Part shown: one piece after another, positions 14,897-64,000 of the stretch
Numbering within the stretch: position 1 is the stretch's first letter
How the letters are laid out: each line of letters opens with the position of its first letter
Assembly: GCA_037917685.1 (NCBI GenBank)
Contig: JAVCBU010000012.1
Location: 371,509 to 435,508, forward strand
Source of the DNA: Thermoproteota archaeon
GTDB taxonomy: Archaea > Korarchaeota > Korarchaeia > Korarchaeales > JAOZGB01
Length of the DNA stretch: 64,000 nt
Direction of reading: 5' to 3'
Translations under genes and position numbers: made by a program
The notes under the pieces: model-generated
Told to the model about the DNA's origin: nothing
The model's input: the letters and a program-made list of their open reading frames with translations, nothing else
Database searches by the model: none

Positions 14897-16393
14897 GTGG
14901 ATCGGCGAAGAGTAGCACTAATCACCCTAATTCTACTCCTATTGCTTATTTCTCTCTATAAAGGTGAGAAATGTATAATAAATGCAAAAATTCGTATAGT
15001 GAACACAAAGCTTGAGAATCTCAGGTCACAGAGGGATTCTATTATGGAAGACATCCTATTTAGCTCAGATTCGGATTATGTCAGTAAGGCTATGTTTGAT
15101 TATTCAGAAATAGTAAGGGAAATTTGCAGACTAGAGGAAGAGTTGAGTAATCTTGAATACAGTTTAAATCCTGAAGAAGGGCGGAATAAACTCATTGAAG
15201 AAATGGAAAATCGAATCGAAGGTGAGCTTAAAGGTCATTTAAATGCTATTATCAAAAATTACCCTGATGTAGTGCCCTTCGACGATGAAAGAATAGCCTT
15301 AGTGCTCTATGATACCGAGGAAGGTAAAAGACTCTGTTATAACCCGGAGACTATTTTCTGGATGGGACAAGCAACGTACCTTGACTATATTGAAACAGGA
15401 GAGCCTTTTTATAGAGATTTTTTTATGAGAGTTTTGAACTGGTCTTTAAAACACGCTGTCTGGAGAGCATGTATGGAAGATCAGGATATCCACATGCCAT
15501 TGAGAATTTTACCCTCACCAGGGTGGTCCCAACCATTTGTCGATAGAAATGTAAGCTTTAGATATCTCATCCCCAACAGAGAGGCAAGAATACATGTTGA
15601 AAATATCTCAGGTAGGGGTAAACTTATCATCGAATATTCGGGTGGAGGTGGAAAATTGGATTTGGATTACGGATACGGGAAAACTAGAATTTCTATTCCA
15701 AAAAGTGCCAACGGAAAGATTGAAGTTGAACTTGCCATGTTTAAGCGTGAGTTAAAGTTAAAATACAAGGGGGGAACCATTCAGGTTGATAAAGTAAGCT
15801 TAAGAACAGAGTTTGAAACTTTTGTATTGGACGTCGGTAGAAATTCAAGACCGTATATTTCCCATGAGTATGGATTTCTCTTCCCCTACTCCGGAGTAGA
15901 ACCGCCTTGGATTTCAGCTATGGCCCAGGGAGTCTTGCTTGAAATATTATCCTATGGATATAACCTTACCGGATTAAAGATTTATTATGAGATAGGTATA
16001 AGACTGCTTCCGGTATTTGATGTCCCTTCATACATGGGTGGAGTCAGAGAAGTAGACTCTAACCATGAATGGTGGTATGCAGAATATCCTGGGTCGAAAA
16101 ACTACGTGCTAAATGGTTTTTTAACCAGCCTTAGAGGATTACACATGTTCTACAAAGTTACAGGTAGCATAGAATCATACATACTTTTTATGTATGGTTT
16201 GAATGAGGCCAAGAGACATCTTAACGAGTACGACACTGGCTCTTGGACGTTCTATGACGCTAAGGGAAACAGAGCTAATATTGGATACCACAGGTATCAC
16301 ATTAAACTCCTCAGATACCTGTTAGAGGTTACTGGAGACAAAGACATAGAGATTATCCTAAAGAGGTGGGAGTCATATCTTACAGGAGACTAG
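14897..16393 (+). CDS. Membrane-anchored D-glucuronyl C5-epimerase domain protein
   Basis: N-terminal TM plus coiled coil; WISAMAQG, WYAEYP, VLNGF, YH..HI..L motifs of the C5-epimerase C-terminal domain. Confidence 0.82.
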   Translation: MDRRRVALITLILLLLLISLYKGEKCIINAKIRIVNTKLENLRSQRDSIMEDILFSSDSDYVSKAMFDYSEIVREICRLEEELSNLEYSLNPEEGRNKLIEEMENRIEGELKGHLNAIIKNYPDVVPFDDERIALVLYDTEEGKRLCYNPETIFWMGQATYLDYIETGEPFYRDFFMRVLNWSLKHAVWRACMEDQDIHMPLRILPSPGWSQPFVDRNVSFRYLIPNREARIHVENISGRGKLIIEYSGGGGKLDLDYGYGKTRISIPKSANGKIEVELAMFKRELKLKYKGGTIQVDKVSLRTEFETFVLDVGRNSRPYISHEYGFLFPYSGVEPPWISAMAQGVLLEILSYGYNLTGLKIYYEIGIRLLPVFDVPSYMGGVREVDSNHEWWYAEYPGSKNYVLNGFLTSLRGLHMFYKVTGSIESYILFMYGLNEAKRHLNEYDTGSWTFYDAKGNRANIGYHRYHIKLLRYLLEVTGDKDIEIILKRWESYLTGD

Positions 16394-24286: not shown

Positions 24287-24371
24287 CGCCGCCGGCCGGA
24301 CTTGAACCGGCGACCACTCGGTCTCTACATTTATTAACAGCCGAGCGCTCTACCAACTGAGCTACGGCGGC
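24287..24371 (-). tRNA. tRNA-Asn(GTT) with 12-nt intron at 37/38 (24323-24334)
   Basis: Cloverleaf GCCGCCG...CTCGG-CTGTTA[ATAAATGTAGAG]A-CCGAG...GCCGG-TTCAAGT-CCGGC-CGGCGGC-G; relaxed bulge-helix-loop splice motif. Confidence 0.92.
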
Positions 24372-24382
24372 ATAATAAAGTA

Positions 24383-24471
24383 TAGCCCCGGCCGGATTCG
24401 AATTCGCCGCTTGAGGCTCCGGCGTCAGCGGGTCCAGAGCCCGCTGTGCTTGGCCACTACACCACGGGGCT
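24383..24471 (-). tRNA. tRNA-Gln(CTG) with 16-nt intron at non-canonical 53/54 (24403-24418)
   Basis: AGCCCCG...GCGGG-CTCTGGA-CCCGC-TGAC-GCCGG[AGCCTCAAGCGGCGAA]TTCGAAT-CCGGC-CGGGGCT-A; A1-U72; strict BHB. Confidence 0.92.
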
Positions 24472-37437: not shown

Positions 37438-37980
37438 CTATGTTTCCCGACAGCTGGGACAAACTAGAAGCCCTCCGGCTTCTATGAGATTGTCTGAGTA
37501 CTCCCCACAAACTTCACATATTCCACTGTATCTTCTTCGTCTAAGCCTCTCCCTCCCACGCATTATGTTAAGTTCTTCGTAGAGGATACCTATAATATCA
37601 GGATATACCTGCAACAAGTCTTTAGATGTGATTATACCAACAATCTTTTCACCTGAAACAACAATGAGCCTTCTGATTCCGTATTGCCTCATTTTTTCAG
37701 CTGCGTCAGTGAGGCTGTCATTAGGCGATATAGTAACAAGATCCCTCGTCATTATTTTACTGATCGGCATTATTCTGGGATCACTAGACTCGGATGCAAG
37801 AGCACGACAAACAAGATCTCTCTCCGTAACTATCCCCACAGGCTTACTACCAGACACTATCACTATCGAACCAATGTTATTCTCCTTCATAAGCCTAGCA
37901 ACTTTTTCAACACTGTCATTTGGTGATGCCGAGACTACCTCTGTCCGCATTACATCCCTTACCCTTAGTTCCTCCCCCAT
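37438..37980 (-). CDS. CBS pair plus C-terminal Zn ribbon
   Basis: GIVTERD; GICEVCG...VCPSC. Confidence 0.9.
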   Translation of the reverse strand: MGEELRVRDVMRTEVVSASPNDSVEKVARLMKENNIGSIVIVSGSKPVGIVTERDLVCRALASESSDPRIMPISKIMTRDLVTISPNDSLTDAAEKMRQYGIRRLIVVSGEKIVGIITSKDLLQVYPDIIGILYEELNIMRGRERLRRRRYSGICEVCGEYSDNLIEAGGLLVCPSCRET

Positions 37981-39892
37981 CTCCGTGTACCTCTAAAATT
38001 TCGTAACCCCCAGGAGGGAGTATCCTCACTAGCTCATCTATCGATAGTAAGTTATTAAGTTTGACCCATGGAAACTTTGATAATGATGATAATTTATCAT
38101 TCAAAGTTTGAAGTATAATTTTAGCCGCCTGATCTTTGGGTATGTCGCCTGGTCGGACGACTATACATAATGGAGAGAGTTTGAGTGCCGAAGGGGGAGC
38201 TGAGACGAGATAAACATCATCATTGTATTCTATAAACCCTATTGCAAGCTTCAGCTCTACAGTAACATAATTTCTTTTCCCTTCGATATAGAAGGAGCCT
38301 TTAGGGATGTAGTGGCCCGGTGGAGCTGATCTCTTAACTTGTTCACCTTTCACATAGTAAACTTTTTCGATAAAGGATTTCTCACGCCATGCTCTAGAAT
38401 TACAAGCCGCGTACGTCGCCGCTTCAACGATGGTTTTCTCACCTATTTTATTAGTTGATTTAACTATTACACAAGACCCTCCCGGTCCTTCTATGTGAAA
38501 GAACAGATCATCTTTCTTAAGATACTTATTTACAAGCTCTTTGTTGGTCTTGTTATCCCTACCGGCAACAACTAGACACCCATCAGATGATATAAACCAC
38601 CTAAACCTCGAAAACCAACGAGCCTTAGGCCTAACAAGCTTTCTCTCAACTTTCTTTACTGGTTCAATTTCTTGTTTAGAAAGTTTAGAGAGGGCTTTTA
38701 AAGCTGACTCTAACTTTCTCTCCATTTTACCCGAGAGCATGTAGTAATAAGCAGCATTCTCATCCACACTGCGGTTAAGATCTATATCAAAGGCTATGCC
38801 AGATAACTCTATCCTTGCCTTCCTCCTTCCTTTATCAAACTCGATAATTTTCACACCGGAGGCGTCTACCTTCTCGTTATTCCATAGTGATTCAATTACA
38901 GCTTCTACTGTTTTATAGTTAGAATATATCGTATCTCCGATTTTTCTACATTGCTCAGTAAGAGTTTTATATCTCTCTATATTTGTTTTAAGCTCCTCAA
39001 TAGATTTTCTAAGTCTCTCCCTTTCCTTATCAGTTGAAGACTTTGCCTTAACCTCGGTAGTTAATATATCGTCCAATATTGCTGAAATATTACTATAACG
39101 CTTACCCTCTAAGGTACTGTAAGCCTTAAGCGGGAAAGGTGAATAGTCAACTGCTTGTTTGGCACTGTCAAGGTACAAGACAGGTTCAGAGCTCTTCCTA
39201 GTTCGCTCGTAAAGCTCCTTAAGGGCTTTTACAATAGCTTCTACTTCACTTGTAGAAAGCTGCTGAATTTTAATCTTGGGATCAATATTTAACGGTTTTA
39301 CGATCTCATCGATGTAGGGTGGCCCGATACCGGCCTTATAAACTAAGAATCTCCAGACCTCGCCTTGGAAAGATATGGCAACATCCCGTATCTCCTCGAA
39401 AGATGAGTTCGGGGATAAGAGTGGATGTTCAGGGGGCTTATATATTTCTCCCCTCCTAATAGTTCTCTTAGAAGTCTGAAAACTTCTAAAATTTAGAATT
39501 ATCATGCCATTAGGGTCTATTAGAAGTATGTTGCCCCGGGCAAACAGTTCAACTATTACCGTCCATATCTCACCTGCCCTTAAAAGTTTGAAAAATATTA
39601 TTCTATCAAAGTCTAATTGCTCAACAGCTTTGATTATAGCGTTCTCCGTATATTTCCTCATGGCCATCGCAAACATAGAAGGTTTAGTAGGCTTCGACCA
39701 TTCCTTTTTACTAAGATATACAGCTTTTCCCGGAATAATTACCAAGTGGAATTTTCCAGCTCGACTTGAAATCTTAACAAGAAAAGTGTCCTCTGACACT
39801 TGGTAGGTTTTCCCCCACCTTGAGCCTTCAATCTCCTTAAACTCGCTAATAAGAAACCTAAGGTCTATACTAGTTAAACCCCTCATAGTCAT
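37916..39892 (-). CDS. rqcH: Ribosome quality control factor RqcH/NEMF (NFACT)
   Basis: DRI, VELF..GNILL, ENA..YY, WF..FRWF.SSDG..V.AGRD. Confidence 0.9.
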   Translation of the reverse strand: MTMRGLTSIDLRFLISEFKEIEGSRWGKTYQVSEDTFLVKISSRAGKFHLVIIPGKAVYLSKKEWSKPTKPSMFAMAMRKYTENAIIKAVEQLDFDRIIFFKLLRAGEIWTVIVELFARGNILLIDPNGMIILNFRSFQTSKRTIRRGEIYKPPEHPLLSPNSSFEEIRDVAISFQGEVWRFLVYKAGIGPPYIDEIVKPLNIDPKIKIQQLSTSEVEAIVKALKELYERTRKSSEPVLYLDSAKQAVDYSPFPLKAYSTLEGKRYSNISAILDDILTTEVKAKSSTDKERERLRKSIEELKTNIERYKTLTEQCRKIGDTIYSNYKTVEAVIESLWNNEKVDASGVKIIEFDKGRRKARIELSGIAFDIDLNRSVDENAAYYYMLSGKMERKLESALKALSKLSKQEIEPVKKVERKLVRPKARWFSRFRWFISSDGCLVVAGRDNKTNKELVNKYLKKDDLFFHIEGPGGSCVIVKSTNKIGEKTIVEAATYAACNSRAWREKSFIEKVYYVKGEQVKRSAPPGHYIPKGSFYIEGKRNYVTVELKLAIGFIEYNDDVYLVSAPPSALKLSPLCIVVRPGDIPKDQAAKIILQTLNDKLSSLSKFPWVKLNNLLSIDELVRILPPGGYEILEVHGDGGGTKGKGCNADRGSLGITK

Positions 39893-39939: not shown

Positions 39940-40869
39940 GTGAATTTAGAGTTAAGTAAACTTTTATACGTAGCACACTGCATAGCAGGCTTCATAGCTG
40001 GCACCATATCTGGGGTGTTACTGCTACCAGGATACTCGGCTTTGGCGCTACTAGCATTCCTGTACAGTCTTACTTCTGCGCTATCGTTAACCACCATTAT
40101 ATGGAAAAAAGGCGCAATGCCACCTATGAGCAAACTATATAGAGAGGGCTTATTTACAACACTTGCCATATTTATAGCGGTTTGGGTAGTCTCGTATAAT
40201 CTTGGAGGAGCCCATCCTATAATCGTTAAAGCAGAAGTTATGATTGAGAAACCACAGATCTTAAAGTGGACAAATGGTGAAATGCTATCACCCAACGAGA
40301 ATGTGAGCTATGGGTACAATTCATGTTATATGGTAGAGCAATATCCAAATGGAAGTTTTAAATTGATACTTGGCAAGTACTACGAACAAGCAACAGGAGT
40401 GTTCGAGTTCTCCAATCCTGTAAACGGTGAGATACTGGTTTGTGACATTAACAGGCTGTCATTTACTCTAGTATCGATCTTAAATACTTGTAAAAGTGGT
40501 ATTTTATGGGGGTCTATTAATATCACAGCTGAAGTAGGAGACAACGCTGCAATAGTCAGGTTAAAACTTGCTGAAAGCGAAGTTTCTGAGAGGATATCAG
40601 TTGGGGATATTAAAAGTCTTTATATCGAAAAATTGGATATCAGTCTTAGAATTGAGGTTTTAGGAATAGACGGAAACTGTACACGTTTAAAGATATATGG
40701 AGAAGAATTTAAAGGTTCCACCATCAATCTGAGCATGGGGAAATTAAACTATAATGTTGCAAGTCTTGTCGTTTTTCATGACGGCAAACTTTATGTCTTC
40801 TATTCTCAGCCATACATTGTTAAGGACCTGCTTAAAATCGATGATGCCTATTTGGTGATTGAAAGTTGA
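39940..40869 (+). CDS. EMC6/Rab5ip-like 3-TM domain fused to a beta-rich soluble domain
   Basis: AG.I.G.L.L.G....L...Y and LY.EGL......F...W...YNL pattern matches EMC6/OPTI as recalled. Confidence 0.6.
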   Translation: MNLELSKLLYVAHCIAGFIAGTISGVLLLPGYSALALLAFLYSLTSALSLTTIIWKKGAMPPMSKLYREGLFTTLAIFIAVWVVSYNLGGAHPIIVKAEVMIEKPQILKWTNGEMLSPNENVSYGYNSCYMVEQYPNGSFKLILGKYYEQATGVFEFSNPVNGEILVCDINRLSFTLVSILNTCKSGILWGSINITAEVGDNAAIVRLKLAESEVSERISVGDIKSLYIEKLDISLRIEVLGIDGNCTRLKIYGEEFKGSTINLSMGKLNYNVASLVVFHDGKLYVFYSQPYIVKDLLKIDDAYLVIES

Positions 40870-41228
40870 ACTACAAGCTCATGGAAGACTCTAAAACTGA
40901 GAAGTTCAAGATGGACCCACAAGATCTTCTCTACTATGTCGTTAAAGCAGTCGAAAAAATGGGGTACGAGTACACCATCAGCACTGAGGGGTTTCCAGGA
41001 GCTGGCCTACTTCGGATTGTAAAAATCAAGGACTCAGATGTTAAATTTGTCATATATGGATTCGGCGAGGACACATGGATAGAGATGGGGCCTGTTTCAA
41101 AATACACGGAGATGATTTCAAGGTTTATGTTCGAGCTAATAAGTATTCTCCCCAAAAAACCGTGGAATAGAATAACTCGAAGATTTTGGGTGAAAAGATG
41201 GCCCATACTTAAGGATTTAGGTGAATAG
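40866..41228 (+). CDS. Hypothetical protein
   Basis: 120-aa ORF overlapping both neighbours in an operon-like run. Confidence 0.65.
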   Translation: MNYKLMEDSKTEKFKMDPQDLLYYVVKAVEKMGYEYTISTEGFPGAGLLRIVKIKDSDVKFVIYGFGEDTWIEMGPVSKYTEMISRFMFELISILPKKPWNRITRRFWVKRWPILKDLGE

Positions 41229-41433
41229 AATGGTTGAGGATCACGCCCATTGTCTGGTATGCGGAAAAGTAATATCTCCAGGGAGAAAGTTTTGTTCTTC
41301 AAAATGTGAAGAAAAATATCTTGAAAGGAAAGCTTCACTTGAAAGGTCTAGAAGGATGATCAATATATTAATGCTACTTACACCGGTCTTACTTGTAATA
41401 TACATAGTAATAGTGAGGCTGTGGGGGGTATGA
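41221..41433 (+). CDS. DUF2116-like Zn-ribbon protein with C-terminal TM
   Basis: HAHCLVCGK.I.....FCS..C then hydrophobic tail. Confidence 0.8.
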   Translation: MNRMVEDHAHCLVCGKVISPGRKFCSSKCEEKYLERKASLERSRRMINILMLLTPVLLVIYIVIVRLWGV

Positions 41434-41810
41434 AACTCGGTAAAAGAAAGGGGACCACGACAATAGATAGAGCTAAACTCCTGTCGTTAAAGCCTAAACC
41501 ATCAAGTAATGTTAAGTGGGAAGTTTACGATACGGGTGAAGTGGCGATAATCATAGAGAGGAAGTACAGAGGTAGACTTGGAGAGATACTGGCGACAATA
41601 TTTATGCAACCCAAAACGAGGAAAATAGTATTAGATGAAATAGGCTCCTACGTTTGGAAATTGCTTGATGGTAAAACCTCAATAAGAGAAATGATAATAA
41701 AAATCTCCGAGAAATTTAAGATGTCAAAAAGAGAAGCAGAGGTCTCTCTAATAGCCTTCCTGTCGGACCTAGAAAAAAGAGGGGCGATAACTGTCGCAGC
41801 CCTACCCTAA
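41430..41810 (+). CDS. PqqD-family protein (RiPP recognition element)
   Basis: LDEIGSYVWKLLDGKTSI.E....I...F.......E..L..FL..LE.RG.I; ATGA overlap with the upstream stop. Confidence 0.85.
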   Translation: MKLGKRKGTTTIDRAKLLSLKPKPSSNVKWEVYDTGEVAIIIERKYRGRLGEILATIFMQPKTRKIVLDEIGSYVWKLLDGKTSIREMIIKISEKFKMSKREAEVSLIAFLSDLEKRGAITVAALP

Positions 41811-43630
41811 TATGGTGTTGCCCATATTAGTCTCGGGTAGAACATTAAGGCAAGGTAGAGTATCTGTACTATTGAAACCCCTGCAAAGATGCCTGCAGCG
41901 ATGCTAACCACGTACCTGTTAACCCATTCTTCTCCGAACACCTTAGCCATTATTTTCTTTGAAATTATAGCAGCTAGATATGTAAACATAAAGAGGGGCG
42001 GGCTTCCAAGCCCAGCGTACAATCCTATAGCAAACAGGTAGGTTTTAGGCCATACGCTTAAAGCAAACCCTACTATGAAGCTTGGTATTATCAAGGAGGG
42101 CTTCAATATAAGTTCAAGTTTCTTTGTAATCCATATATTTTGAAGTATCAGCTGTGGTATCCAGAATGGAACCGGGAACACGTCGCTAGGAATATTATAC
42201 AGCCTCCAGAATATGGATATTATTAGGAGACCCATTATAGTACCAATCCCCCATCCCAGAATGTCTGCTTTCAGTATACTTGTAGGCTTTGTTCTAGTGA
42301 TCTCGGCTGCTTTAAATCCAATACCAAGCGTTAATCCGGCAGATGTTATAAAACTAGGGGCTACAAACCATCCAGCAACTCCATCGTAGAATTTAACTCT
42401 CATGAACTCTGTTAGGTAAGGTATATCTACAACAACGAGGGCTTGGCCAAAAGTATATCCGGAGATAAGAGTGAAGAATATTGAGTATCCGATAGCCGCT
42501 AAAGCTAGCCAAACCGGGTAATCCGGAGCAAGGACTTTTGTTATAGCTATCGAGTATGCGTAGCCTCCTGCAAGCATCAAAATAATAATGTTTAACGGAA
42601 CTAGACCACTACCCTTAATGGATGAAATTCTTTTTATACTTCTAACGCCTCTTGGTAAAAGTTTTACAGAAGTTATAAGGGGAGGTATAGCCAGTGCAAT
42701 TGCAAATCCTATATTTGGACTTACCCAGAAATGAAGCATGCTATCCCTCAGCAACATGGTCCAAGATTCTTGCGGAATCCAGGGTATTATCCCCTTACTG
42801 ACGAGTAACGGATTAAATATGAGTTGTGATATTAAAGAAGAGATTATATAGCCGATCATGTAAGGTGTTCCAAGCACGAGTGCCACCGCATAATCTAGTG
42901 CGGTGGGGTAAAAGGTGATCATGGCCCCTGGAAGCCGTGTACTAAGCGTAGGGGTAAGGTCAAGTGCTGGTTGAAGTCCCATTATCACCGTTATAATTAA
43001 TGTATAGGCTGCTGAGGCTGAAGCTGCTATGGAGAAGATTCTGAACCTCGACGGGTCTCTTCTCCCGCTCATATCCAATGCTAGTTGGCCTGCGATAGCA
43101 CCAGTAGGCCATGGAAGCTTCTCTTCAACGATGAATATTTGCCTTACAATTAACCCTATTCCCCATGACGTTAGAAAACCAAACAGACCAGATAATATTA
43201 TGAGCGCTATTGGGATTAAAAAGTCTTCATGGAATAATGTCCTAGATAATACTGCTTCGGACGATGGAAGGGGGGCAACCCAGTCTGGTATTTTATCTGC
43301 TATCCCCATCATTGCAGTAATAGGACTGGACCTGAAGAAAACGTAGTACATGAGGCCTGTACCTGCTAAACTTGTTACTGCTGCTGAGGCGCTCCATCTT
43401 ATAGTTGCTAGTTCCTGAGCTGTTAGCGATCCCCCGAATATTCTAGCTATCTCTCCAAATAGTACCATTGCCATGAATGCCGCGGCTATACCGAATGCTC
43501 CTATTCCCGCCAGGATTGCCCACACCATTACTGGGGCTAGAACTATGCCTGTCACTATCGTGATTAGTATAACTCTATACGTGAAGCCTTCCCTATATAT
43601 TACTTCTTCATTACTATTCATAAGTCGCAC
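41807..43630 (-). CDS. OPT-superfamily oligopeptide transporter-like membrane protein
   Basis: G.T.R, LT.QE, EEKLPWP.G, AAG..AG; about 14-16 TMs. Confidence 0.72.
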   Translation of the reverse strand: MRLMNSNEEVIYREGFTYRVILITIVTGIVLAPVMVWAILAGIGAFGIAAAFMAMVLFGEIARIFGGSLTAQELATIRWSASAAVTSLAGTGLMYYVFFRSSPITAMMGIADKIPDWVAPLPSSEAVLSRTLFHEDFLIPIALIILSGLFGFLTSWGIGLIVRQIFIVEEKLPWPTGAIAGQLALDMSGRRDPSRFRIFSIAASASAAYTLIITVIMGLQPALDLTPTLSTRLPGAMITFYPTALDYAVALVLGTPYMIGYIISSLISQLIFNPLLVSKGIIPWIPQESWTMLLRDSMLHFWVSPNIGFAIALAIPPLITSVKLLPRGVRSIKRISSIKGSGLVPLNIIILMLAGGYAYSIAITKVLAPDYPVWLALAAIGYSIFFTLISGYTFGQALVVVDIPYLTEFMRVKFYDGVAGWFVAPSFITSAGLTLGIGFKAAEITRTKPTSILKADILGWGIGTIMGLLIISIFWRLYNIPSDVFPVPFWIPQLILQNIWITKKLELILKPSLIIPSFIVGFALSVWPKTYLFAIGLYAGLGSPPLFMFTYLAAIISKKIMAKVFGEEWVNRYVVSIAAGIFAGVSIVQILYLALMFYPRLIWATPY

Positions 43631-43632
43631 CT

Positions 43633-46600
43633 CTACTTAGATTCTGCTCTTTCCCTTTTTACCTTATAAACTACTCCTGTGTATCTTGATTTCTGCTCAG
43701 GGGTTAAGCTTCTCCACACTAGACACTGTTTTCTTATCTTGTCTACGAACTTTTGCACCGCGTGTTTCCATGGTGACGTAAGCCCTCCAAGCCTTCTCAC
43801 ATAGACGTCCATGGAGCAGGTTCCCTCCTTCGGTATTCTGACATTTATCTTTATAATGTTCATTATTCCCTGATCCCACGGTCTGTGCCTTGTATACGCC
43901 ACTATTGTTTTAATACGTTCTGTTTCTGTTTTTTTCTCCTCCATCCATAGCTTATCTGACGTGAATTCCTCCTCTTTTTCTGTCCTGTGTACCTCAAGGT
44001 ATTCGTAGATATAGTTCATAAGTCCGTCAATCTCTATTCTTGCTGGTGCAAATGGGAGAGGAATGAACCATTCGTCCCCTTTGGGTGGTGGGATCTTCCA
44101 TTTCCTCATAACTCCTGGAGTTACAAGTTTTGATGCTACTCTCATCGGATATAGTGTTGAAGCGAGGGTTGTTAGGAGGACGATTAACATGGAACCTGGT
44201 ATCCATCCAGATGTGAAGTTGGGGTGCAATGTTTGGAGGATGTTCAGGGCATCGAATATTATATGGAGTCCTGTGCCCAGTATATATCCTAGCATTCCTC
44301 CTATCAGGCCTACAGTTACTGCTTCGGCTATGAACAGTCCTGAAACGTGGGTCGGTGAGAGGCCTACCGAACTATATGTGAATATCTCAGGCTTCCTTTC
44401 ATAAACTGCTGTTATCATCGTGTTGAGCACTGTAATTATTAGTATTCCCATTAAGACAGTTAACATTGGGAGCCCGAGGGTCATCTGTTCGAATTTAGGC
44501 GAGTATTCCTCGACTGTATTATTGAATCCCATATATACGTGCATCTTATATCTAAATGCCATATCTAACGCTGATTCTCTCATCGCATCGATTGTTACGT
44601 TGGGTTTTGCTTTGATGTATACTTTTACGATCATTCCTCCAAGCTGATATGCTGTTTCGGCGTGCATTATTACAATATTCTCTGGTAGCAGAAACTCTTC
44701 TTCTCTGGCTGTTACTCTTCCTCCTATTCCTACTGATAGTTGGGCTGGCCGCTTAGGATACCCGTCAAAGTCTGTGAGTTGTACTAGATTTTGATCGTCG
44801 ATTATCCCCTTCACGTGGAAGCTTAGTCCGTAAATGTTTATTGTGTCGCCAATATCTATTTCTAGGGACTCTGCTAGGGCTTTACTAAGTATGCATGCTC
44901 TGTAGTCGTCTTCTTCTAACCATGAACCTTTAACTATTGTTGCCGCCATCCCGGATGCTTCTCCCTCCCATGGTGTTACACCCCAGAGGGCGTTTATCCC
45001 GTATTTCTCGCCTGTCTTTTCAACGATAAAATCTATTTCACCTGTGCCTACTGGGTATGCCCACACCGTGAACCCTATATTTCGGACTATTTCGTATTTT
45101 CCGATTGTTTCGTAGAACTTTCTGCTTAGGGGGTTCCATTGTTCGCCTCGTATTAGGAACCCATTGTAAGGTATTTTTCGCTGTGTTCCTGTAATGTATG
45201 ATGGTAAGAATGCTGTAGATATTGATACTGAGGAGACTAGGGCTCCCGTCACGACCATTATTGATATGATTGTTAGCGCGCTTCTGAGTCTTCTTTTCTT
45301 CATGTTTCTTATTCCAAGTACGAATGCAGCCATTAACGCGCCTAGCCTGCTTATTTCCGATGCATGTATTCCCATTTTAGATTCTCTTTTCTCTCTGAAA
45401 AGGGTAAGTAACTCTCCTATCATCAAGACTAGTGCCACTATGCTGAATAGTGACATTGAGAAGACTAATATGTTCATGCCTAGGTTGGGGGCTATCCTGA
45501 AGCCTGGATGTATCACATACATTAGAGCCATAAATACGGCGAAGATTATTACGATTGTTTGTAATGCTTTCATGGTTTTTTCATGTTCGAATAGTAGTCT
45601 TTCTAGGACTACGGCGAAGGGTAGTAGGAAGAATAGAAAAGTGAAGCTGCTATTTGTGGCTCCCTTTAACACTTTCATAACCTCAAGATAAGCGTTTATA
45701 TAAAATCCCCACGCTGTCTTTGCATCTATTCGGTGCATTATGTAGTCTCCCCATTTCCAGTCCTCGATTGCTATTTCCTCGTATTTTTCACCATTCTGAA
45801 CGTAGAGGTATGTCATTGGAGTGTAAAGCTTGCTCTTGTTACATATCTCAAGCCTATTTAAAACTATGTACTTAAGGTTCCGCGCTATTTTAAGTTCCTG
45901 CTGTTGAAACATCAAAATCTTAGCATCTTCTACTAGGTAACCGTATCCATCTGGATTGTCAACAGTGGCATTATTAAGTATGCCGGAGATCTGAAGTGAC
46001 GGAATGAATTTTAAAAACATAAATTCGTATCTTTTCCCGGGAACAAGCATCAGCATGGTCCACGTAGGCAGGTTAGGATGCCCCTCGTTTAAGAAACCTA
46101 CGTGAGGTAACACCATATTGTGGGTGGGGTATTCAAGAGGTTGAACCTGCAGGGATGCATACTGAATTCTACGTTCGTTTGGATCTAGACATTCATAGAA
46201 TAAGACATATCCGGCACGAAATACATTCACTTCGATCCTATATGCAGATGATTTCATGGAGAATATTACTTTAGTAAGGCTGTTTATTCCTGTGATGTCT
46301 ATTGCATATTCAGGCGGGCCCTCGGAGGGATCGTCCTTAAATGCCATGATGACATAGAAGTTTTCAGATTCAGGTTGGAGACCATAAACCTTGAAGAATC
46401 CTTTTTCGTCGGTTTTCACCGTTTCGAAGAATAATGTGAATACTTGTGCTTCTCCGGTCCTTGAGCTTTCTGCTAGGATGACTAAAGAGTTTGGTACTGG
46501 CACGTAACTATCGTTTGACGGATTGTACATTGAAACTCTGCCTATTAAGGTTGCGAATCCGAGGTGGCCGGAAAGTCTATAGGGTCCTTCTACTCTATTC

Positions 46601-48027
46601 GGAAGATCTTCCCATGTCGCTAACCTGTATGCGATGGCGAACGTGGCGTGTATTGGCTTATAGTTTTCATGCAGGTTTATCTTTTCAATAGTATCTGAGG
46701 GAGTGCCGTATGCAGATCTTATGTCTTCAGGCATTCTGTCGGTTATGCTAAATCCTATTCCCCCATATATGGTGAAGACTTCGTGTTCGGAGTACGATAA
46801 ACCACCGTGTTTTTCTAGAATATATTCATCGTATTCTAATAGATATTCTTCTCCAAGTTCTAATGATAACTGGCCCAGAATAGATTTTATCTCGTCTATG
46901 AGGAATTCTATCCTCCTAGATATTCTCTGTTGCTGGAAATAATATAGGTTTCCAGCATCATAAATAGATATTGCGTTTTTATAGCCAGAAACGTCTATAC
47001 TCATAACAACTTTAACATTACCTAGCTCTTCAAAATGCTCGTTAACATAGGCTCTAGCGCCAATACAGGAGTATCCAACTCCGTGACCTGAAAAGGCGGC
47101 AAATATAACACGCCTATAAGGATTTATTTCGCTAATAAATTTAGCTAACTCAAGAAACACGCCGACAGATACAGCTTCACTTGCACCTGGACTTAGAGAT
47201 GGTACTAGGGTTTGAGAGTCAAAATGCGTTGATAATAGGATGGCTTCATCGTTTACCCTGCCTGGGACTTCACCTATTATGTTCTTTATTATTCCATTCT
47301 CATATTCCATTTTGACCTTGACAGTGGCGGTAATCATTTCTCCGTTCTCTAACCTGTCCTTAAGTTCCAACCCTTTGCTTCTTGGTATGATAATGCGGGG
47401 CACATCTAATGGAAGTATGTAGAATGCTTTCTGGGTAATTTCGTCTAGGGTGTACTGCTCTGGTCCAATGAATACTATAGCTTTAACGCCAAGTTTTATT
47501 AGTTCAGCCCAGTCATATTTCACGTCAAATTCGACCAGTGCAATAGCATCCTTGAAATTCTTATTCTGCAGATCGTCTGAAGAGAGTTTTCCAGCGTAAA
47601 CCAATGGACCTGTTATCCCGTTTTCCGGGGTGGAACATGTTTCTACCCCGTTTGGTCTAAGTGCATAACACTGAATTTCTTCTGTCCCCTGAGTTTGAAT
47701 TGTAAGGGTAGATCCGTAATCCTTTAGTATTGTAGCATTATAGTATTCAACCTGGACTTTTAACCCGTATTTTCTGAGTGTTTCTTCCACGTACTTAGCT
47801 GCAAGGTCGTATCCTTCTGACCCTGGCACCCTTGTAGGTAGGCTGGAAAGGTATCTTGCGTGTTCTTCTATTCTTGTAATGTTAATTTTCGAGATTATAT
47901 CACTCCATTGGGAGTTTGCTATGACACCTGAAGCTGTGTAATTTGCTTTAAGCATGAAGATGACTACAAGGATCAATTGCATCAGTAGGAGTTTAATGTT
48001 GGATCTGCGTTTCAGCTTTACCACCAC
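43633..48027 (-). CDS. 1464-aa fusion: signal peptide, M28 peptidase-like + PA domain, beta-sandwich, TMs, MacB/FtsX-type permease
   Basis: RVPGSEG, GITGPLVYAG (PA), STHFDS, TDEKG.F, RNMKKRRLRSALT, AVYERKPEI..YSSVG, LFIAEA. Confidence 0.85.
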   Translation of the reverse strand: MVVKLKRRSNIKLLLMQLILVVIFMLKANYTASGVIANSQWSDIISKINITRIEEHARYLSSLPTRVPGSEGYDLAAKYVEETLRKYGLKVQVEYYNATILKDYGSTLTIQTQGTEEIQCYALRPNGVETCSTPENGITGPLVYAGKLSSDDLQNKNFKDAIALVEFDVKYDWAELIKLGVKAIVFIGPEQYTLDEITQKAFYILPLDVPRIIIPRSKGLELKDRLENGEMITATVKVKMEYENGIIKNIIGEVPGRVNDEAILLSTHFDSQTLVPSLSPGASEAVSVGVFLELAKFISEINPYRRVIFAAFSGHGVGYSCIGARAYVNEHFEELGNVKVVMSIDVSGYKNAISIYDAGNLYYFQQQRISRRIEFLIDEIKSILGQLSLELGEEYLLEYDEYILEKHGGLSYSEHEVFTIYGGIGFSITDRMPEDIRSAYGTPSDTIEKINLHENYKPIHATFAIAYRLATWEDLPNRVEGPYRLSGHLGFATLIGRVSMYNPSNDSYVPVPNSLVILAESSRTGEAQVFTLFFETVKTDEKGFFKVYGLQPESENFYVIMAFKDDPSEGPPEYAIDITGINSLTKVIFSMKSSAYRIEVNVFRAGYVLFYECLDPNERRIQYASLQVQPLEYPTHNMVLPHVGFLNEGHPNLPTWTMLMLVPGKRYEFMFLKFIPSLQISGILNNATVDNPDGYGYLVEDAKILMFQQQELKIARNLKYIVLNRLEICNKSKLYTPMTYLYVQNGEKYEEIAIEDWKWGDYIMHRIDAKTAWGFYINAYLEVMKVLKGATNSSFTFLFFLLPFAVVLERLLFEHEKTMKALQTIVIIFAVFMALMYVIHPGFRIAPNLGMNILVFSMSLFSIVALVLMIGELLTLFREKRESKMGIHASEISRLGALMAAFVLGIRNMKKRRLRSALTIISIMVVTGALVSSVSISTAFLPSYITGTQRKIPYNGFLIRGEQWNPLSRKFYETIGKYEIVRNIGFTVWAYPVGTGEIDFIVEKTGEKYGINALWGVTPWEGEASGMAATIVKGSWLEEDDYRACILSKALAESLEIDIGDTINIYGLSFHVKGIIDDQNLVQLTDFDGYPKRPAQLSVGIGGRVTAREEEFLLPENIVIMHAETAYQLGGMIVKVYIKAKPNVTIDAMRESALDMAFRYKMHVYMGFNNTVEEYSPKFEQMTLGLPMLTVLMGILIITVLNTMITAVYERKPEIFTYSSVGLSPTHVSGLFIAEAVTVGLIGGMLGYILGTGLHIIFDALNILQTLHPNFTSGWIPGSMLIVLLTTLASTLYPMRVASKLVTPGVMRKWKIPPPKGDEWFIPLPFAPARIEIDGLMNYIYEYLEVHRTEKEEEFTSDKLWMEEKKTETERIKTIVAYTRHRPWDQGIMNIIKINVRIPKEGTCSMDVYVRRLGGLTSPWKHAVQKFVDKIRKQCLVWRSLTPEQKSRYTGVVYKVKRERAESK

Positions 48028-48079
48028 ACATGTGGTTGGGATTTTAATGTTAAAAATTTAACGGAGTAATCCTTGATAT

Positions 48080-48718
48080 ATGGCTACCCCTTTTATTGTC
48101 ACCTATTTGGGAAACATTGTTAGGAAATGGGAAGCTAAAGGATCAGAGATCATTATTGATCTTTCAAGCAAGATTAACCGTATCGCCTTTTTTACAAAAC
48201 CTATCGGTTTCGGGTTTGGAGAGCACGAAGCAGTCTTCGTCGGATTTTATACCGTTGTGCCACCAGAAGCTATGGACAAGGATAAATCTGAACTTTATAG
48301 AAGGTTAAAGCCTTTAGAATGTGAACTTACATGGTGTGGACTACTTAGAAAGAAACCTTACTGGAGTCCTTTTATAGGACTCAAGATTTTCAGCGAAAAG
48401 ATAGGTTTAAAGCCGGATAGCTTATTACGTAACATGCTCTTAGAGAATGCTGAGATTAACAGGTTAATAAATCGAATTAAACCAGAAGAAGTATGGATTG
48501 CTCTTGACTCCGGAGTATCGCACATAGCTGGTGGAGTAGAAGATACTGAAAACGCTGCTCTAGAATACTATAGGAATCCAGAGGAGGTTAAATTTGTAAT
48601 GTATGTTTCAAAACTGTGTGAAATTGCCATGATATCGAAGGAAGATACTTTAGATATATTAAGGCTTATGATAGAGATCGCCGAAACGATTGATGACATA
48701 GTGGAAGAGTTAGGGTAA
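48080..48718 (+). CDS. Hypothetical protein
   Basis: 212-aa ORF divergent from the fusion gene; no family recognised. Confidence 0.65.
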   Translation: MATPFIVTYLGNIVRKWEAKGSEIIIDLSSKINRIAFFTKPIGFGFGEHEAVFVGFYTVVPPEAMDKDKSELYRRLKPLECELTWCGLLRKKPYWSPFIGLKIFSEKIGLKPDSLLRNMLLENAEINRLINRIKPEEVWIALDSGVSHIAGGVEDTENAALEYYRNPEEVKFVMYVSKLCEIAMISKEDTLDILRLMIEIAETIDDIVEELG

Positions 48719-48776
48719 GCTCGTTTTTAGACCTTTGCCGTAGTAACTTTTAAAAAACTTCGAATGGTAAAATGAG

Positions 48777-50828
48777 TTGATTAAAATGGCTGAAACCGAG
48801 GTTTACGCTGGTGAAGAGGCTGAAATGATTGAATATAAGGCATTCACTGCGAGAGCTGTAGTGCTAGCGCTGTTCTTTGGATTACTTTGGATATTCGCAC
48901 AGATTATAATGGGAGTGGCGGCCGGCTACATGTGGACGGGAGAGGGAGCTGCTGCGATGATGATAATAAGCTATGCCTTATTCGCGGCTTTGAGACAGAA
49001 AAACGTTAGACTTGAAGAGTACGGAGTTATATTTGGTATTACAGAAGTCATCTGCTGTGCATCCCTTGGCTGGGCCCAATACGCTTTTCCAAGCACGGTT
49101 CTAGCCCTGGCATCACCAAGATACAAGGCTTATGGCGAGTATCTACCATCGTTCTTAGCCCCTGCCGCCGAGGATCAACTAAGGGCTGCAATGTACGGAG
49201 GAGCTATAAGATGGGGTGAATGGATAACACCTATAATCTTCTACATAGCATTCGGCCTCGTAATGTTCCTGTTTTCAATGTTTGTAGTGATGCCGGTTAG
49301 AAAGCAGGTCATAGAGATAGAGAGACTCCCATTCCCAGTAGCAACTGTCAGCGCCACAGTAGTGCGCATGACAGCGGGCAGAGAGCACCCTGAAAGATTG
49401 AGATGGCTATGGCTAGGGCTACTCATAGGATTTCTTGTTGGAATACTCCAGGAAGGCTTTATGTTGACAAAAATGTTCCCAGGATTCGGAGGAATACCTA
49501 TAAGCCACGATTTCACGCCAAACTTGCAGGATCTATTCCCTGGCTCGGCATTAATGATAGCGGGGCTTACACCGGATCTAATTGCATGGGCATACATAAT
49601 TCCGCTTGAAACCCAGCTTACAATGGTACTCTTTGGGATCCTATTCTATGTGGTAATCGCAACAATACAGGTCAGGCTAGGCTGGGTTACATACGAGCCA
49701 GGAGGCGGATGGTATGACTACTCCTACGTAGTTTGGCTTAAAGGGATATCAACAATCCACCTTACTGAAGGAACATACTTTGCAGCAGCTATTGTACCAG
49801 TACTGATTAGCACTGCGTATTTAAAGAGGATGTTTAGAAGCCTTATTTCAGGACCTACAGATGAAGAAAAGGAGGAAGAGCCGTTAACATACAGGACAAT
49901 GTGGGCTATAATAGTAGTACTGTTCGTAGCTGCAGTTGGGCTTCTCATGATGCTCAGAATGCCAGCAATCATGGCAGTGGTAATGATGATTATCCAAGGA
50001 ATTACATTCCACATGTACATGAGGAGCATAGGAGCCGCAAACTGGAGCATACCTATTCCAACGGGGATTCAAAGATTGATGAACATGATATTCTTCCAGC
50101 CATGGCCGGGAATGGAGAAAGGCTTCTTTGAACCAATGAGCCAGGCAGGGTTCAGCACTGGACTAAGCGATATATTAACATTAGAAGCTGGTAGCGGCGG
50201 CGGCGTCTCAAGCATGGAAACATTTAGATTTGCTTTTCTAACACGGATGAAACCAAAGGACATGCTGAAGGCACAGCTTATAGGTGCTTTCATGTCTTTA
50301 ACAATAGGCATCCTACTGGTGTTATTCTTACTAGGGAAGTTCGGAGGTCTAAGTGAACAGATGAAATTCATGTATGGCTACGTAGTCACGAGAGCTGCTA
50401 ACCAAATGCGTGTCAACCTTGGAGGCTTCAGCTTTAAGATATTCGTAGCTGGCTTCATACTTGGTGCTGCAATAATCCTCGCTAGAATAAGATTCCCATG
50501 GCTACCGATAGATGCGTACGGAATAGTTCTCGCAGGACTATTGAACGAGTACATACTACTTTACATGATAACTCTAATCCTAAAGTACTTCACATTAAAG
50601 ATCGGAGGTACAAGGGGATATGAAGGAGTAGCAATACCATTTGTGGCTGGACTAGCCACAGGTGGAATCCTAGTGGGAATATACACGGGAATTCTCAGCT
50701 TGCTCGATGCCCTAGGAGTTCAGCCGATAGCCGGCGTTTCTACAATCCTGATACTAGGGGTCATCTTCATTCTGATAACTGTGATACCAACCGTCATCGC
50801 TATCGTAAGGGCTTTCACAAGGGCCTAA
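48777..50828 (+). CDS. OPT/DUF6785-like multipass transporter
   Basis: AFTARA, W.EW..P, RKQ..E.ERLPFP.A, R.RFPWLPI..YG, PF..GL. Confidence 0.72.
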   Translation: MIKMAETEVYAGEEAEMIEYKAFTARAVVLALFFGLLWIFAQIIMGVAAGYMWTGEGAAAMMIISYALFAALRQKNVRLEEYGVIFGITEVICCASLGWAQYAFPSTVLALASPRYKAYGEYLPSFLAPAAEDQLRAAMYGGAIRWGEWITPIIFYIAFGLVMFLFSMFVVMPVRKQVIEIERLPFPVATVSATVVRMTAGREHPERLRWLWLGLLIGFLVGILQEGFMLTKMFPGFGGIPISHDFTPNLQDLFPGSALMIAGLTPDLIAWAYIIPLETQLTMVLFGILFYVVIATIQVRLGWVTYEPGGGWYDYSYVVWLKGISTIHLTEGTYFAAAIVPVLISTAYLKRMFRSLISGPTDEEKEEEPLTYRTMWAIIVVLFVAAVGLLMMLRMPAIMAVVMMIIQGITFHMYMRSIGAANWSIPIPTGIQRLMNMIFFQPWPGMEKGFFEPMSQAGFSTGLSDILTLEAGSGGGVSSMETFRFAFLTRMKPKDMLKAQLIGAFMSLTIGILLVLFLLGKFGGLSEQMKFMYGYVVTRAANQMRVNLGGFSFKIFVAGFILGAAIILARIRFPWLPIDAYGIVLAGLLNEYILLYMITLILKYFTLKIGGTRGYEGVAIPFVAGLATGGILVGIYTGILSLLDALGVQPIAGVSTILILGVIFILITVIPTVIAIVRAFTRA

Positions 50829-59921: not shown

Positions 59922-60190
59922 CGGCTGGGTGGAGGCTGTAATCCACCTTCTGTTTGTACGGGAGATTAGACTATGCGCCCCTACGGGCTTGCACCCCCAC
60001 GGGGAACCCTCGTTTCACCGCGAGGCGGATATACTCCGCGGTTTTGCCGCTTCATAGACATTCACCTGCCTCCTTTACGTTTCTGTAGGGTTCCCTACCC
60101 CTCTCAGGGTACCTGGACGGCGTGGTTAACCGGGTGGGTGGAATTTCCTCAGCCCATATAGGGCCGAACTCCCGCACCTCCTCCCAGCCG
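59922..60190 (-). ncRNA. rnpB: RNase P RNA, type M-like
   Basis: Terminal helix CGGCTGGG/CCCAGCCG; GAGGAAATTCCACC (CR-I), ACAGAAA, GGTGAAACG, GGGTGCAAG, AACAGAAGGTGGATTA (CR-V). Confidence 0.92.
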
Positions 60191-60193
60191 TTC

Positions 60194-60233
60194 GGCCAAG
60201 GCATAGGTACCGTTACGTCGGTCAGACTAGGGC
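60194..60233 (-). other. 3' arm of the 23S processing stem with BHB
   Basis: Pairs with 63290-63329: central CGUC/GACG helix, bulges AAA and UAA, long flanking helices. Confidence 0.9.
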
Positions 60234-63289
<3,056 letters not shown>

Positions 63290-63329
63290 GCCCTAGCCTG
63301 ACCTTTGACGCAGCACCTATGCCTTGGCC
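63290..63329 (-). other. 5' arm of the 23S processing stem with BHB
   Basis: Complementary to 60194-60233. Confidence 0.9.
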
Positions 63330-63362
63330 TTCACCGAACCGTAAGATCAGGTTCTCGGCCTC

Positions 63363-63387
63363 AGCCTTAAACCTCAGGTTTAAGGCT
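63363..63387. repeat. Perfect 11-bp hairpin in the 16S-23S spacer
   Basis: AGCCTTAAACC-TCA-GGTTTAAGGCT. Confidence 0.85.
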
Positions 63388-63444
63388 TCATACAGTGATA
63401 GTAGTAAGCAGTCTAAGCCCCCCTTAAGAGGCGGCAGGATTATG

Positions 63445-64000
<556 letters not shown>

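Follow-up and report, generated by a model that had tools for sequence, protein, structure and literature searches.

We analysed a 64,000-nucleotide stretch of contig JAVCBU010000012.1 (hereafter the window, meaning this whole stretch) from a Thermoproteota archaeon of the GTDB lineage Korarchaeota, in which a block of eight genes at 39940-50828 carries the core of an apparently undescribed membrane system, consisting of a giant fusion protein with an FtsX-type permease half and two transporter-like proteins of the OPT superfamily. Four genes form a plus-strand string (39940-41810) with overlapping stops and starts, and encode an EMC6-like protein of 309 amino acids (aa) (39940-40869; Pfam EMC6, PF07019, 31.7 bits versus a cut-off of 23.3, aa 9-86), a soluble 120-aa protein without a Pfam family (hyp120; 40866-41228), a 70-aa zinc-ribbon protein (41221-41433; Pfam DUF2116 treble-clef, 1.8e-14) with a C-terminal transmembrane (TM) helix at residues 47-65 by hydropathy, and a 129-aa protein (41421-41810) with the PqqD fold of the recognition elements (RREs) of ribosomally synthesized and post-translationally modified peptides (RiPPs), matched by Pfam PqqD (PF05402) at 1.7e-11 and 44.7 bits versus 23.4 over aa 62-123. 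The 3' end of the PqqD gene overlaps by 4 bp that of the gene for OPT-A, a 607-aa polytopic membrane protein on the minus strand (41807-43630) that matches the Pfam OPT model end to end (30.9 bits versus 25.8). This gene forms a minus-strand string with that of the 1464-aa fusion (43633-48027; Pfam Peptidase_M28, PF04389, 7.5e-14, 52.3 bits; MacB_PCD, 1.9e-10; FtsX, 2.5e-12), and starts 2 bp past the fusion stop codon. On the plus strand, the gene for a cytoplasmic 212-aa protein without a Pfam family (hyp212; 48080-48718) lies directly upstream of that for the 683-aa membrane protein OPT-B (48777-50828), which matches Pfam DUF6785 (PF20581) at 2.2e-20 (73.1 bits versus 25) as well as OPT (6.6e-10, 38.7 bits versus 25.8). 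The block is flanked by genes for RqcH and FtsY. An earlier reading of this DNA from its letters alone (the sequence-only reading) had listed these eight genes with their coordinates and domains, and had seen neither a RiPP-modifying enzyme nor an ATP-binding cassette (ABC) ATPase among them. Our open reading frame (ORF), Pfam and NCBIfam scans agree on each of these points, finding no radical SAM, YcaO or ABC ATPase gene in the block; the PA part of the fusion was seen by the fold model only.

The layout of the fusion was derived from hydropathy and from two AlphaFold models based on 22-sequence alignments, m02cedfbca5a5 (predicted local distance difference test score, pLDDT, 84.7) and m056aaef8e384 (pLDDT 84.6). 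A predicted N-terminal anchor (aa ~10-28) is followed by a PA/M28-like head (46588-47910, minus strand like the whole gene, aa ~40-480; Pfam M28 and Foldseek), and by a beta-sandwich and three-helix stalk of the ectodomain (45658-46560, aa ~490-790), which match no Pfam family and correspond to strands 464-680 and helices 682-761 of model m02cedfbca5a5. Three extra TM helices (45415-45642, aa ~796-871; hydropathy, and helices 2-110 of model m056aaef8e384) precede the permease half (44128-45288, aa ~914-1300), in which TM1 (aa ~914-941) and TM2 are separated by an extracytoplasmic core domain (aa ~942-1182; MacB_PCD, PF12704, 41.9 bits versus 27, aa 916-1152), and TM2-4 span aa ~1183-1300 (FtsX, PF02687, 47.3 bits versus 25.5, aa 1189-1300). 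The permease half matched MacB (5gko_A, 1.8e-13) and LolCDE (9rlc_E, 2.1e-12) in Foldseek searches, and also HrtBA, YtrEF, YbbAP and BceAB, while VIA-align placed YtrEF, MacB, LolCDE and FtsEX at Z 13-17 (YtrEF 9o9x_C, Z 17.0). By the same method the core domain aligned with the MacB periplasmic domain 3ftj_A at Z 15.1, with a root-mean-square deviation (rmsd) of 3.1 over 177 residues. By sequence and modelled fold, this part of the protein is a permease half of the MacB/LolC type (type VII ABC). The C-terminal cytoplasmic tail (43636-44115, aa ~1305-1464), of beta-alpha-beta4-alpha topology in model m056aaef8e384, keeps a conserved stretch P-x-G-D-E-W-x-I-P-L-P-F, and was matched best in VIA by KA1-type domains (5iri_B, Z 9.7, rmsd 2.6 over 99; 6m1u_A, Z 8.9), followed by Bet v1/START-like folds at Z ~8. 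We take the KA1-like or Bet v1-like kinship of the model as a lead only. The idea that the tail might be a cryptic ATPase was dropped, given that its best folds were KA1 and Bet v1-like at Z 8-9.7.

The PA-M28 head is visible in the fold model of the window fusion, in which Pfam called no PA domain. Its Foldseek matches are led by PA-domain aminopeptidases (2ek8, 5.5e-27; BSAP 6hc6; PaAP), followed by transferrin receptor (3kas_A, 9.2e-22) and GCPII. The co-catalytic zinc ligands of M28 peptidases are H-x-D, a bridging Asp, Glu-Glu, Asp/Glu and His, and these columns were read against 2ek8 in the window head and in the heads of the full-length fusion relatives, which occur in 21 other loci at 24-39% identity. 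In the window protein the catalytic Glu-Glu is replaced by His-Gly and the last zinc-binding His by Gly; among all 22 heads, none keeps the Glu-Glu, and none has a His in the last-ligand column. Because both are lost in every head, the domain is a non-canonical M28 domain and, as with transferrin receptor, very likely not a peptidase. Among the 120 best database relatives of the permease half, some metagenome chains have LysM domains in the head. By precomputed Pfam lists, LysM is carried by P0055 (rechecked by our own Pfam scan), P0060, P0062, P0082, P0086 and P0105, and TPR by P0046 and P0075, in chains of 1950-2479 aa. The window's genome (G000) also encodes three other FtsX giants, all without OPT neighbors: a 1318-aa M28-MacB_PCD-FtsX protein preceded by a canonical 494-aa PA/M28 peptidase (G000:C2:15607-21044; L017:5608-11045), a 952-aa CarboxypepD_reg-FtsX protein adjoining DUF92 and an S-layer gene (G000:C6:275585-278443; L018:7586-10444), and a 942-aa Peptidase_M1-FtsX protein (G000:C6:370928-373756; L019:6929-9757).

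The sequence-only reading had noted a shared motif in the two OPT-like proteins, and this was borne out, with EKLPWP at residue 170 of OPT-A and ERLPFP at residue 182 of OPT-B; the form E-x-L-P-[WFY]-P is present in 15/22 OPT-A relatives and 14/29 OPT-B relatives. The NCBIfam OPT model TIGR00728 gave 16.4 versus a cut-off of 128.35 for OPT-B and no match for OPT-A. DUF6784 (PF20580) was not called in window OPT-B, and was called in relatives at L023, L024, L026 and L060. Whole-genome scans by BLAST and hidden Markov models (HMMs) detected a second triad of OPT-A (654 aa), fusion (1512 aa) and OPT-B (674 aa) on contig C5 of the same genome, in the same gene order as in the window and 25-28% identical to the window copies. 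In other genomes, a one-genome-per-species scan based on two peptide patterns yielded 11 loci, of which 10 were archaeal and the eleventh was a weak, FtsX-only match in Arthrobacter. With the same-genus locus and that of genome G039 set aside, OPT-A adjoins the fusion in 8/8 loci (L022-L029), and OPT-B also adjoins in 6 of these, the contigs of the remaining two ending first. An independent seed was provided by DUF6785 (PF20581) matches in five of the scan genomes, for which 15 loci were fetched, three of them already in the earlier set. OPT-B, fusion and OPT-A were found together in 14/15 of these loci, the exception being L046 with OPT-B alone, and the order and strand of the genes differed between loci, so that the linkage of the triad has outlasted many rearrangements. 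At least seven triads are present in G044, and at least six in G046. Moreover, FtsX and DUF6785 occur in a single chain in 5 of the 120 listed relatives of the permease half (P0022, P0029, P0045, P0073 and P0090, all metagenome proteins), four of them with DUF6784 too, the domain order in P0022 and P0045 being FtsX, tail, DUF6785, DUF6784. Judged from sequence, no other single finding speaks as strongly for the fusion and OPT-B working in contact. We are highly confident that the triad is one functional module; the three core genes are grouped far beyond chance, and the eight genes of the block as a whole are not. The sequence-only reading had proposed an undescribed membrane system, and this is supported, the system being real, conserved and apparently undescribed.

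Hyp212 is 76% identical in genome G001, and shows weak but reciprocal similarity to 211-aa proteins encoded next to OPT-B in L055, L059 and L061 (~15-24 bits, the searches being very small). No link was found by hhalign to the 250-aa gene upstream of the OPT-B that stands alone in genomes labelled g2, and the matches in the ESM Atlas, viral unnamed clusters with a best score of 0.89, were of no use. Around the C5 triad lie three URO-D/MtaA-like (methylcobamide methyltransferase-like) genes (L016:1801-2886, 10493-11659 and 13840-14916), and similar genes stand beside other triads (L044:19-924, L047:1117-2262 and L054:11396-12454); a tie to methylated sugars or methoxylated compounds is a guess. 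A 144-aa ORF 1.1 kb beyond the C5 OPT-B (G000:C5:30950-31384; L016:14951-15385) matches the C-terminal quarter of OPT-A only (HMM E 4e-35), and is a fragment or remnant.

Co-occurrence was evaluated in one sample of 401 genomes, many of them incomplete, which was drawn evenly from the phylum of G044 and used for all four family searches. The permease half of the fusion was detected in 84 genomes (E <= 1e-40), the small PqqD protein in 72 (E <= 1e-8; 70 also with the fusion family), orthologs of a small FtsX protein described below in 79 (E <= ~1e-39, a cut that separates ORFs of 195-270 aa from ordinary 400-aa MacB-like permeases; 75 also with the fusion family), and DUF6785 in 68, each of which also has the fusion family. 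In all, 64 genomes contain all four families and 90 contain at least one, although these counts ignore genome relatedness, and the fusion-family and DUF6785 searches scored only 2-3 candidates per genome, two limits that count against the reading proposed below. The two PqqD-only genomes hold weak matches near 1e-10, and 11 of the 14 genomes with the fusion family and no PqqD carry only shorter or weaker forms. The co-occurrence that the sequence-only reading had proposed to examine is seen for the fusion family, DUF6785 and PqqD, and the phyletic spread of the EMC6-like gene is independent of the system. The same pattern returns in a separate lineage, the 43 genomes of the window's own phylum, where the full-length fusion and OPT-A are found only in G000 (two copies), G001 and G039, and intact PqqD in the same three, with a weak match in G027. 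Genome G038, 92% complete, contains wrecks only, namely DUF6785 with 4 stops (C57:13653-14849), PqqD with 3 stops (C57:46008-46235) and a small FtsX cut to 149 aa (at C41:58890-59270), and neither fusion nor OPT-A was found there, which looks like joint decay of the system. No match to PF20581 was obtained in 14 well-known control genomes. Fusion relatives in the databases are named from Latescibacteria, Gemmatimonadetes, Armatimonadetes, Deltaproteobacteria (including isolates) and Bathyarchaeota.

The sequence-only reading had described a system without an ATPase, and had considered a genome search for a co-distributed orphan ATPase of the MacB/LolD type; the search finds a candidate, and the description is not supported. 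The genome contains 43 ABC_tran matches, none of them in the block or on contig C5, and the nearest one on contig C1 lies outside the window. A single-copy small FtsX protein (219 aa, four helices, no outside domain) is directly followed by a 249-aa ATPase at G000:C6:210463-211872, the best NCBIfam rows for the latter being LolD (3.9e-67) and the ATPase part of MacB (3e-65), all below the curated cut-offs. YERKPEIFTYSSVGLSP between TM2 and TM3 of the fusion parallels AERVREIGTLKCLGA of the small FtsX. The two genes are adjacent in 7/8 further loci, the eighth lying at a contig end, and in four g6 genomes of the window's phylum small FtsX orthologs adjoin large FtsX proteins. Between distant genomes the LolD-like ATPase is 66-75% identical (L065:8124-8873, L067-L074), as compared with 39-42% for the small FtsX and 24-39% for the fusions. 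Conservation of the ATPase is unusually high next to partners at 24-47%, as expected of a shared motor, since one motor must fit many partners. On balance, we lean towards the small FtsX/LolD-like pair being the shared motor of the system, and the PqqD-fold protein an accessory. A conventional MacB-type set of a 388-aa permease and a 233-aa ATPase also lies between a CARDB/NPCBM_assoc surface protein and an 838-aa GH5 cellulase (G000:C18:59013-65267; L066:5013-11267), which is another association of FtsX with glycans in the same genome.

The small PqqD protein is present in single copy, is 36-45% identical across distant genomes, and has a basic N-terminal extension of 60 residues before the PqqD domain. 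An FtsX-type or OPT-B gene lies within 10 kb at 11/18 PqqD loci (the window, G001, G039, L055-L061 and L064), and none does at the other 7 (L035-L039, L062 and L063). In eight genomes PqqD is directly upstream of the small FtsX gene, 37-53 bp away from it; in L058 the PqqD stop and the start of a 695-aa FtsX gene overlap, and in L056 and L057 it belongs to a one-strand cluster that reads GH57, GT5, PqqD, 282 aa, 121 aa, 612 aa, fusion and OPT-B (then OPT-A in L057), with the small FtsX and two ATPase genes ~5 kb further on. The DUF2116 gene adjoins PqqD at 7/18 PqqD loci. Relatives of the small PqqD protein are named from Thermoprotei, Bathyarchaeia and Latescibacteria, the last of which also supply fusion relatives. 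A RiPP enzyme (radical SAM, YcaO or lasso) was not detected beside PqqD in the window block or in 16 other Pfam-scanned loci, no search for a precursor having been run; the G039 locus (L021) was scanned with our own HMMs only, and in L039 a radical SAM gene lies ~3 kb from PqqD. NCBIfam scores of the protein were far below cut-offs, the lasso and PQQ chaperone models matching it weakly, and a search for longer, fused forms of it found none, which is weak evidence. These data suggest that PqqD is probably a shared component of the system used outside RiPP biosynthesis, as the sequence-only reading had proposed, with the qualification that it belongs at the whole-genome level, where 70/72 genomes that carry it also have the fusion family. 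The DUF2116 protein is probably also a shared component.

In contrast, two neighbors that had been counted as members are better left out. The EMC6-like gene, whose product has N-terminal TM hairpins and a C-terminal domain, occurs in 31/43 genomes of the window's phylum, including 17/21 of the g2 genomes, in which the fusion is lacking, and in many of these is separated by 9-13 kb from the stand-alone DUF6785 gene. Because it is common in genomes without the fusion, it is probably a mere neighbor that does not belong to the system. Homologs of hyp120 were found only in G001 and G039, three genomes in all, making it lineage-restricted and its membership doubtful. No link was found by hhalign between these two proteins and the 282-305-aa and 121-aa proteins beside PqqD elsewhere (121-aa in L056). 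The eight-gene block is thus in part inherited synteny. An ER-translocon-like link, suggested by a nicalin match of the fusion (E 0.008) and the adjacent EMC6-like gene, was rejected since that gene does not follow the system. The RqcH gene (37916-39892, minus strand) and the EMC6-like gene (39940-40869, plus strand) form a conserved divergent pair, also found in G040 (L033:5182-8110). Elsewhere in the window, positions 59927-64000 contain the archaeal large subunit (LSU) rRNA, RNase P RNA directly beside it and the small subunit rRNA running off the window end, this rRNA region having a G+C content of 0.61-0.62 versus ~0.40 in the rest of the window, and two adjacent tRNA matches of 85 and 89 nt lie at 24287-24471.

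To define the genomic context of the module, we used 22 distinct triad loci (the window, C5, L022-L029, L040, L042-L044, L047, L048, L050-L054 and L056). In 12 of the 22 a neighbor above the Pfam cut-off belongs to a glycoside hydrolase (GH) or polysaccharide lyase (PL) family, or is a sugar-pathway enzyme or a TrmB sugar regulator: heparinase II/III in L022; DUF6259, matched together with glycosyl-hydrolase-like models, in L023 and L024; melibiase/GH31 with GalE, GalT, GalK and PfkB in L025; TrmB in L028 and L043; GH94 in L040; GH57 and a maltose-forming amylase-like protein in L042; GHL10 in L044; ThuA in L047; GH53 in L054; and GH57 with GT5 in L056. In contrast, a single peptidase-family neighbor was found among the 22, an S9/esterase-type protein in L054. 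In 11 PqqD or small-FtsX/ATPase loci from the same kinds of genome (125 proteins), which served as a control, there was no GH, PL or TrmB, although these neighbors were scanned at a stricter E <= 1e-12, as compared with 1e-5 to 1e-3, and lie in different loci, which blunts the contrast. The control loci held mostly housekeeping genes (aminoacyl-tRNA synthetases, S25, Lhr helicase, PcrB and Elf1). The presence of up to at least seven triads per genome is as expected of substrate-specific uptake systems, the LysM heads of some metagenome relatives also speak for a carbohydrate link, and the triads are probably substrate-specific and regulated, whereas the shared parts are probably constitutive. 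Because of the carbohydrate-gene neighbors, the lack of a peptidase context and the degenerate M28 head, we favor capture and import of glycans, and regard carbohydrate uptake as having an even chance of being the role of the system.

We propose, with confidence that stands about midway, that the system takes up glycans by means of an ATP-driven, MacB-type device, which captures them at the surface and feeds them to two OPT-like permeases, PqqD being a shared accessory. The fusion is a surface protein whose transferrin-receptor-like head, very likely dead as a peptidase, is tied through the beta-sandwich and helical stalk to half of a MacB/LolC-type permease, and the other permease half and the motor would come from elsewhere, once per genome, as the 219-aa small FtsX and the LolD/MacB-type ATPase. 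One motor would serve both fusion paralogs of the genome, an arrangement like that of LolC, LolE and two LolD in LolCDE, and ATP hydrolysis in the cytoplasm would move the outside domains by mechanotransmission. Oligo- or polysaccharide outside the cell would be captured by the head and then taken in through the pair of OPT-like permeases. The PqqD-fold protein, often paired with the DUF2116 zinc-ribbon/TM protein, would serve the FtsX/OPT complex in the cytoplasm as a shared subunit or as an assembly factor, and not as a RiPP leader binder. Within the module, hyp212 is the small cytoplasmic partner of OPT-B. The EMC6-like gene and hyp120 would be neighbors by descent. More tentatively, and as a possibility that we consider doubtful as a whole, this would be a new class of nutrient-uptake machine, in which a receptor-like head on a MacB-type mechanotransducer hands glycans to a fixed OPT-superfamily pair, and in which the motor and the RRE-fold protein are common to all paralogs.

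Beyond the limits of the co-occurrence counts and of the control loci, several points weigh against this proposal. OPT proteins are known to carry peptides and metal chelates and are not known to carry sugars, and to our knowledge MacB-type systems export, extract or activate outside the membrane, none being known to import. The H-x-D of the head is largely kept (His 17/22, Asp 22/22), together with an acidic residue after G-A and a new His, and, from the alignment, the head may have some metal-dependent activity. The window triad has no carbohydrate gene beside it, its neighbors being RqcH, FtsY and the PqqD string. Finally, DUF6785 stands alone in 21/21 g2 genomes of the window's phylum, in which fusion, OPT-A, PqqD and small FtsX were not found with the queries used, and window OPT-B, which is 47% identical to a stand-alone DUF6785 in G039, 33.5% to the stand-alone g2 genes and 25% to its C5 paralog, is by sequence comparison the ortholog of the stand-alone gene. 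DUF6785 proteins can thus evidently function alone in g2, and OPT-B does not strictly need the rest of the system; its adjacency here may be partly inherited synteny, and the idea that the adjacent OPT-B is special to this block is not supported.

Some of these points bear on other explanations for the same genes. The sequence-only reading had favored a peptide or glycopeptide machine, with the M28/PA head for trimming or capture of extracellular peptides, the OPT-like proteins for their import, and the PqqD/RRE protein as the cytoplasmic peptide binder. Such a role would agree with the oligopeptide substrates of known OPT proteins, given that OPT-A and OPT-B both score above the Pfam OPT threshold, with the peptide binding of RRE domains, and with the 494-aa PA/M28 peptidase directly upstream of a third M28-FtsX fusion and the Peptidase_M1-FtsX fusion in the same genome, so that FtsX-tethered heads do work on peptides in this organism. 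However, that third fusion and the M1 fusion have no OPT neighbors, 0/22 heads keep the catalytic Glu-Glu or the last His ligand, and carbohydrate genes adjoin 12 of the 22 loci versus one with a peptidase-family gene (L054). In addition, a single-copy PqqD beside multi-copy triads, placed among housekeeping genes at 7/18 loci, fits a shared subunit better than a substrate adaptor. A peptide substrate is therefore improbable and is not supported.

A glycan connection of the opposite direction, which we rate as unlikely, is an outward-facing envelope system, whose MacB-type part would extract, export or remodel a surface glycan, lipid-linked sugar or S-layer component, with the OPT-like proteins exporting or flipping the precursor. 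As far as we know, characterised MacB-type systems act on extracytoplasmic substrates and none imports; the fold matches include FtsEX-EnvC and LolCDE, glycosyltransferases (GTs) lie near some members (a PMT-like GT in L055, GT5 in L056 and GT2 beside PqqD in L035), the stand-alone DUF6785 of g2 genomes is found among PGM, PGK and EF-1alpha, and the 952-aa FtsX relative of the window's genome is near DUF92 and an S-layer gene. On the other hand, the neighbors of the triads are mostly sugar-catabolic or regulatory (GH94 phosphorylase, alpha-galactosidase and Leloir genes, GH57, GH53, ThuA and TrmB), and at least seven diverged paralogs per genome fit substrate diversity better than one envelope task. 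It is also conceivable, and in our judgement very improbable, that there is no single machine, and that independent membrane proteins are kept together by co-regulation or descent, the eight-gene block being partly an accident of synteny. The orthology of window OPT-B to a stand-alone gene would be explained in this way, as would the 9-13 kb spacing of EMC6-like and OPT-B genes in many g2 genomes without the fusion, and the arrangement in G039, where fusion, OPT-A and PqqD are on one contig and the only DUF6785 is on another beside EF-1alpha. Independence is difficult to reconcile with the FtsX-DUF6785 chains, four of five with DUF6784, with adjacency kept through rearrangements in 14/15 independently seeded loci, with DUF6785 within the fusion-family set in 68/68 sampled genomes, or with the joint decay in G038.

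Approximately one in five sampled Thermoproteota genomes (84/401) contains the fusion family, and some hold at least seven diverged triads. If the triad does serve glycan uptake, then carbohydrate use by these uncultured heterotrophs has been missed or misread as peptide use, because the OPT and M28 labels suggest proteolysis. What MacB-type mechanotransmission and the RRE fold are known to do would be widened as well. On the more tentative reading of a new class of uptake machine, many Thermoproteota and several bacterial phyla would import glycans mainly by this route, no type VII ABC system having been known to import before, and the RRE fold would be put to use outside RiPP biosynthesis.

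Database names for these proteins are generic (FtsX-like permease family protein, M28 family peptidase, ABC-type antimicrobial peptide transport system permease subunit, hypothetical). A full-text search of a literature library found no paper mentioning DUF6785, DUF6784 or DUF6259; for DUF2116 it returned one unrelated preprint, and broader searches on the system returned nothing relevant. Each part belongs to a known superfamily, and the combination of an ectodomain-FtsX giant, two OPT-like proteins, an RRE-fold protein and a small FtsX/LolD-like motor is apparently without a described counterpart, known to us or found. With the type VII ABC systems (MacB, LolCDE, FtsEX, YtrEF, HrtBA, YbbAP and BceAB) it shares the four-helix FtsX domain and the large extracytoplasmic domain between TM1 and TM2, and it has a co-distributed LolD/MacB-like ATPase and small FtsX, such that a pair of large and small permeases would resemble LolC/LolE. 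Unlike these systems, the fusion locus lacks an ATPase, and the protein has in addition a PA/M28-like ectodomain of 760 aa, three more TM helices and a KA1-like cytoplasmic tail of 150 aa. It is constantly accompanied by a PqqD-fold protein and by two OPT-superfamily proteins, which in some cases are fused with it. We know of no described type VII ABC member with such partners. The proposed logic is alike in FtsEX with EnvC, PcsB or CwlO, where cytoplasmic ATP hydrolysis moves an outside working domain, and FtsEX chains are among the fold matches of the permease half (8tzj_C, Z 14.4; 8hd0_C, Z 12.1), but in the present system the outside effector is fused to the permease and has a degenerate peptidase fold, and the context is of nutrient-use genes, not cell division.

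The two OPT-like proteins, of 600-700 aa, resemble the OPT family (PF03169, TC 2.A.67) in aligning end to end above the Pfam threshold and in sharing E-x-L-P-[WFY]-P. They differ in that their scores are marginal (30.9 and 38.7 bits) and do not reach the cut-off of the NCBIfam OPT model, in that OPT-B belongs to DUF6785/DUF6784, a family of unknown function, and in that the two form a fixed pair with an FtsX fusion in the company of carbohydrate genes. Transferrin receptor and nicalin are, like the fusion head, PA and M28 folds without catalytic residues, and both are binding or scaffold modules at membranes. The head matches transferrin receptor chains at 9e-22 (Foldseek) and nicalin 6w6l_5 weakly in sequence (the E 0.008 match given above); unlike them it is prokaryotic and fused to an ABC-type permease, and it is their kin by fold only. 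Finally, the small PqqD protein has its PqqD domain in common with RiPP recognition elements, and is set apart here as a single-copy protein with a basic N-terminal extension that is co-distributed with a transport system.

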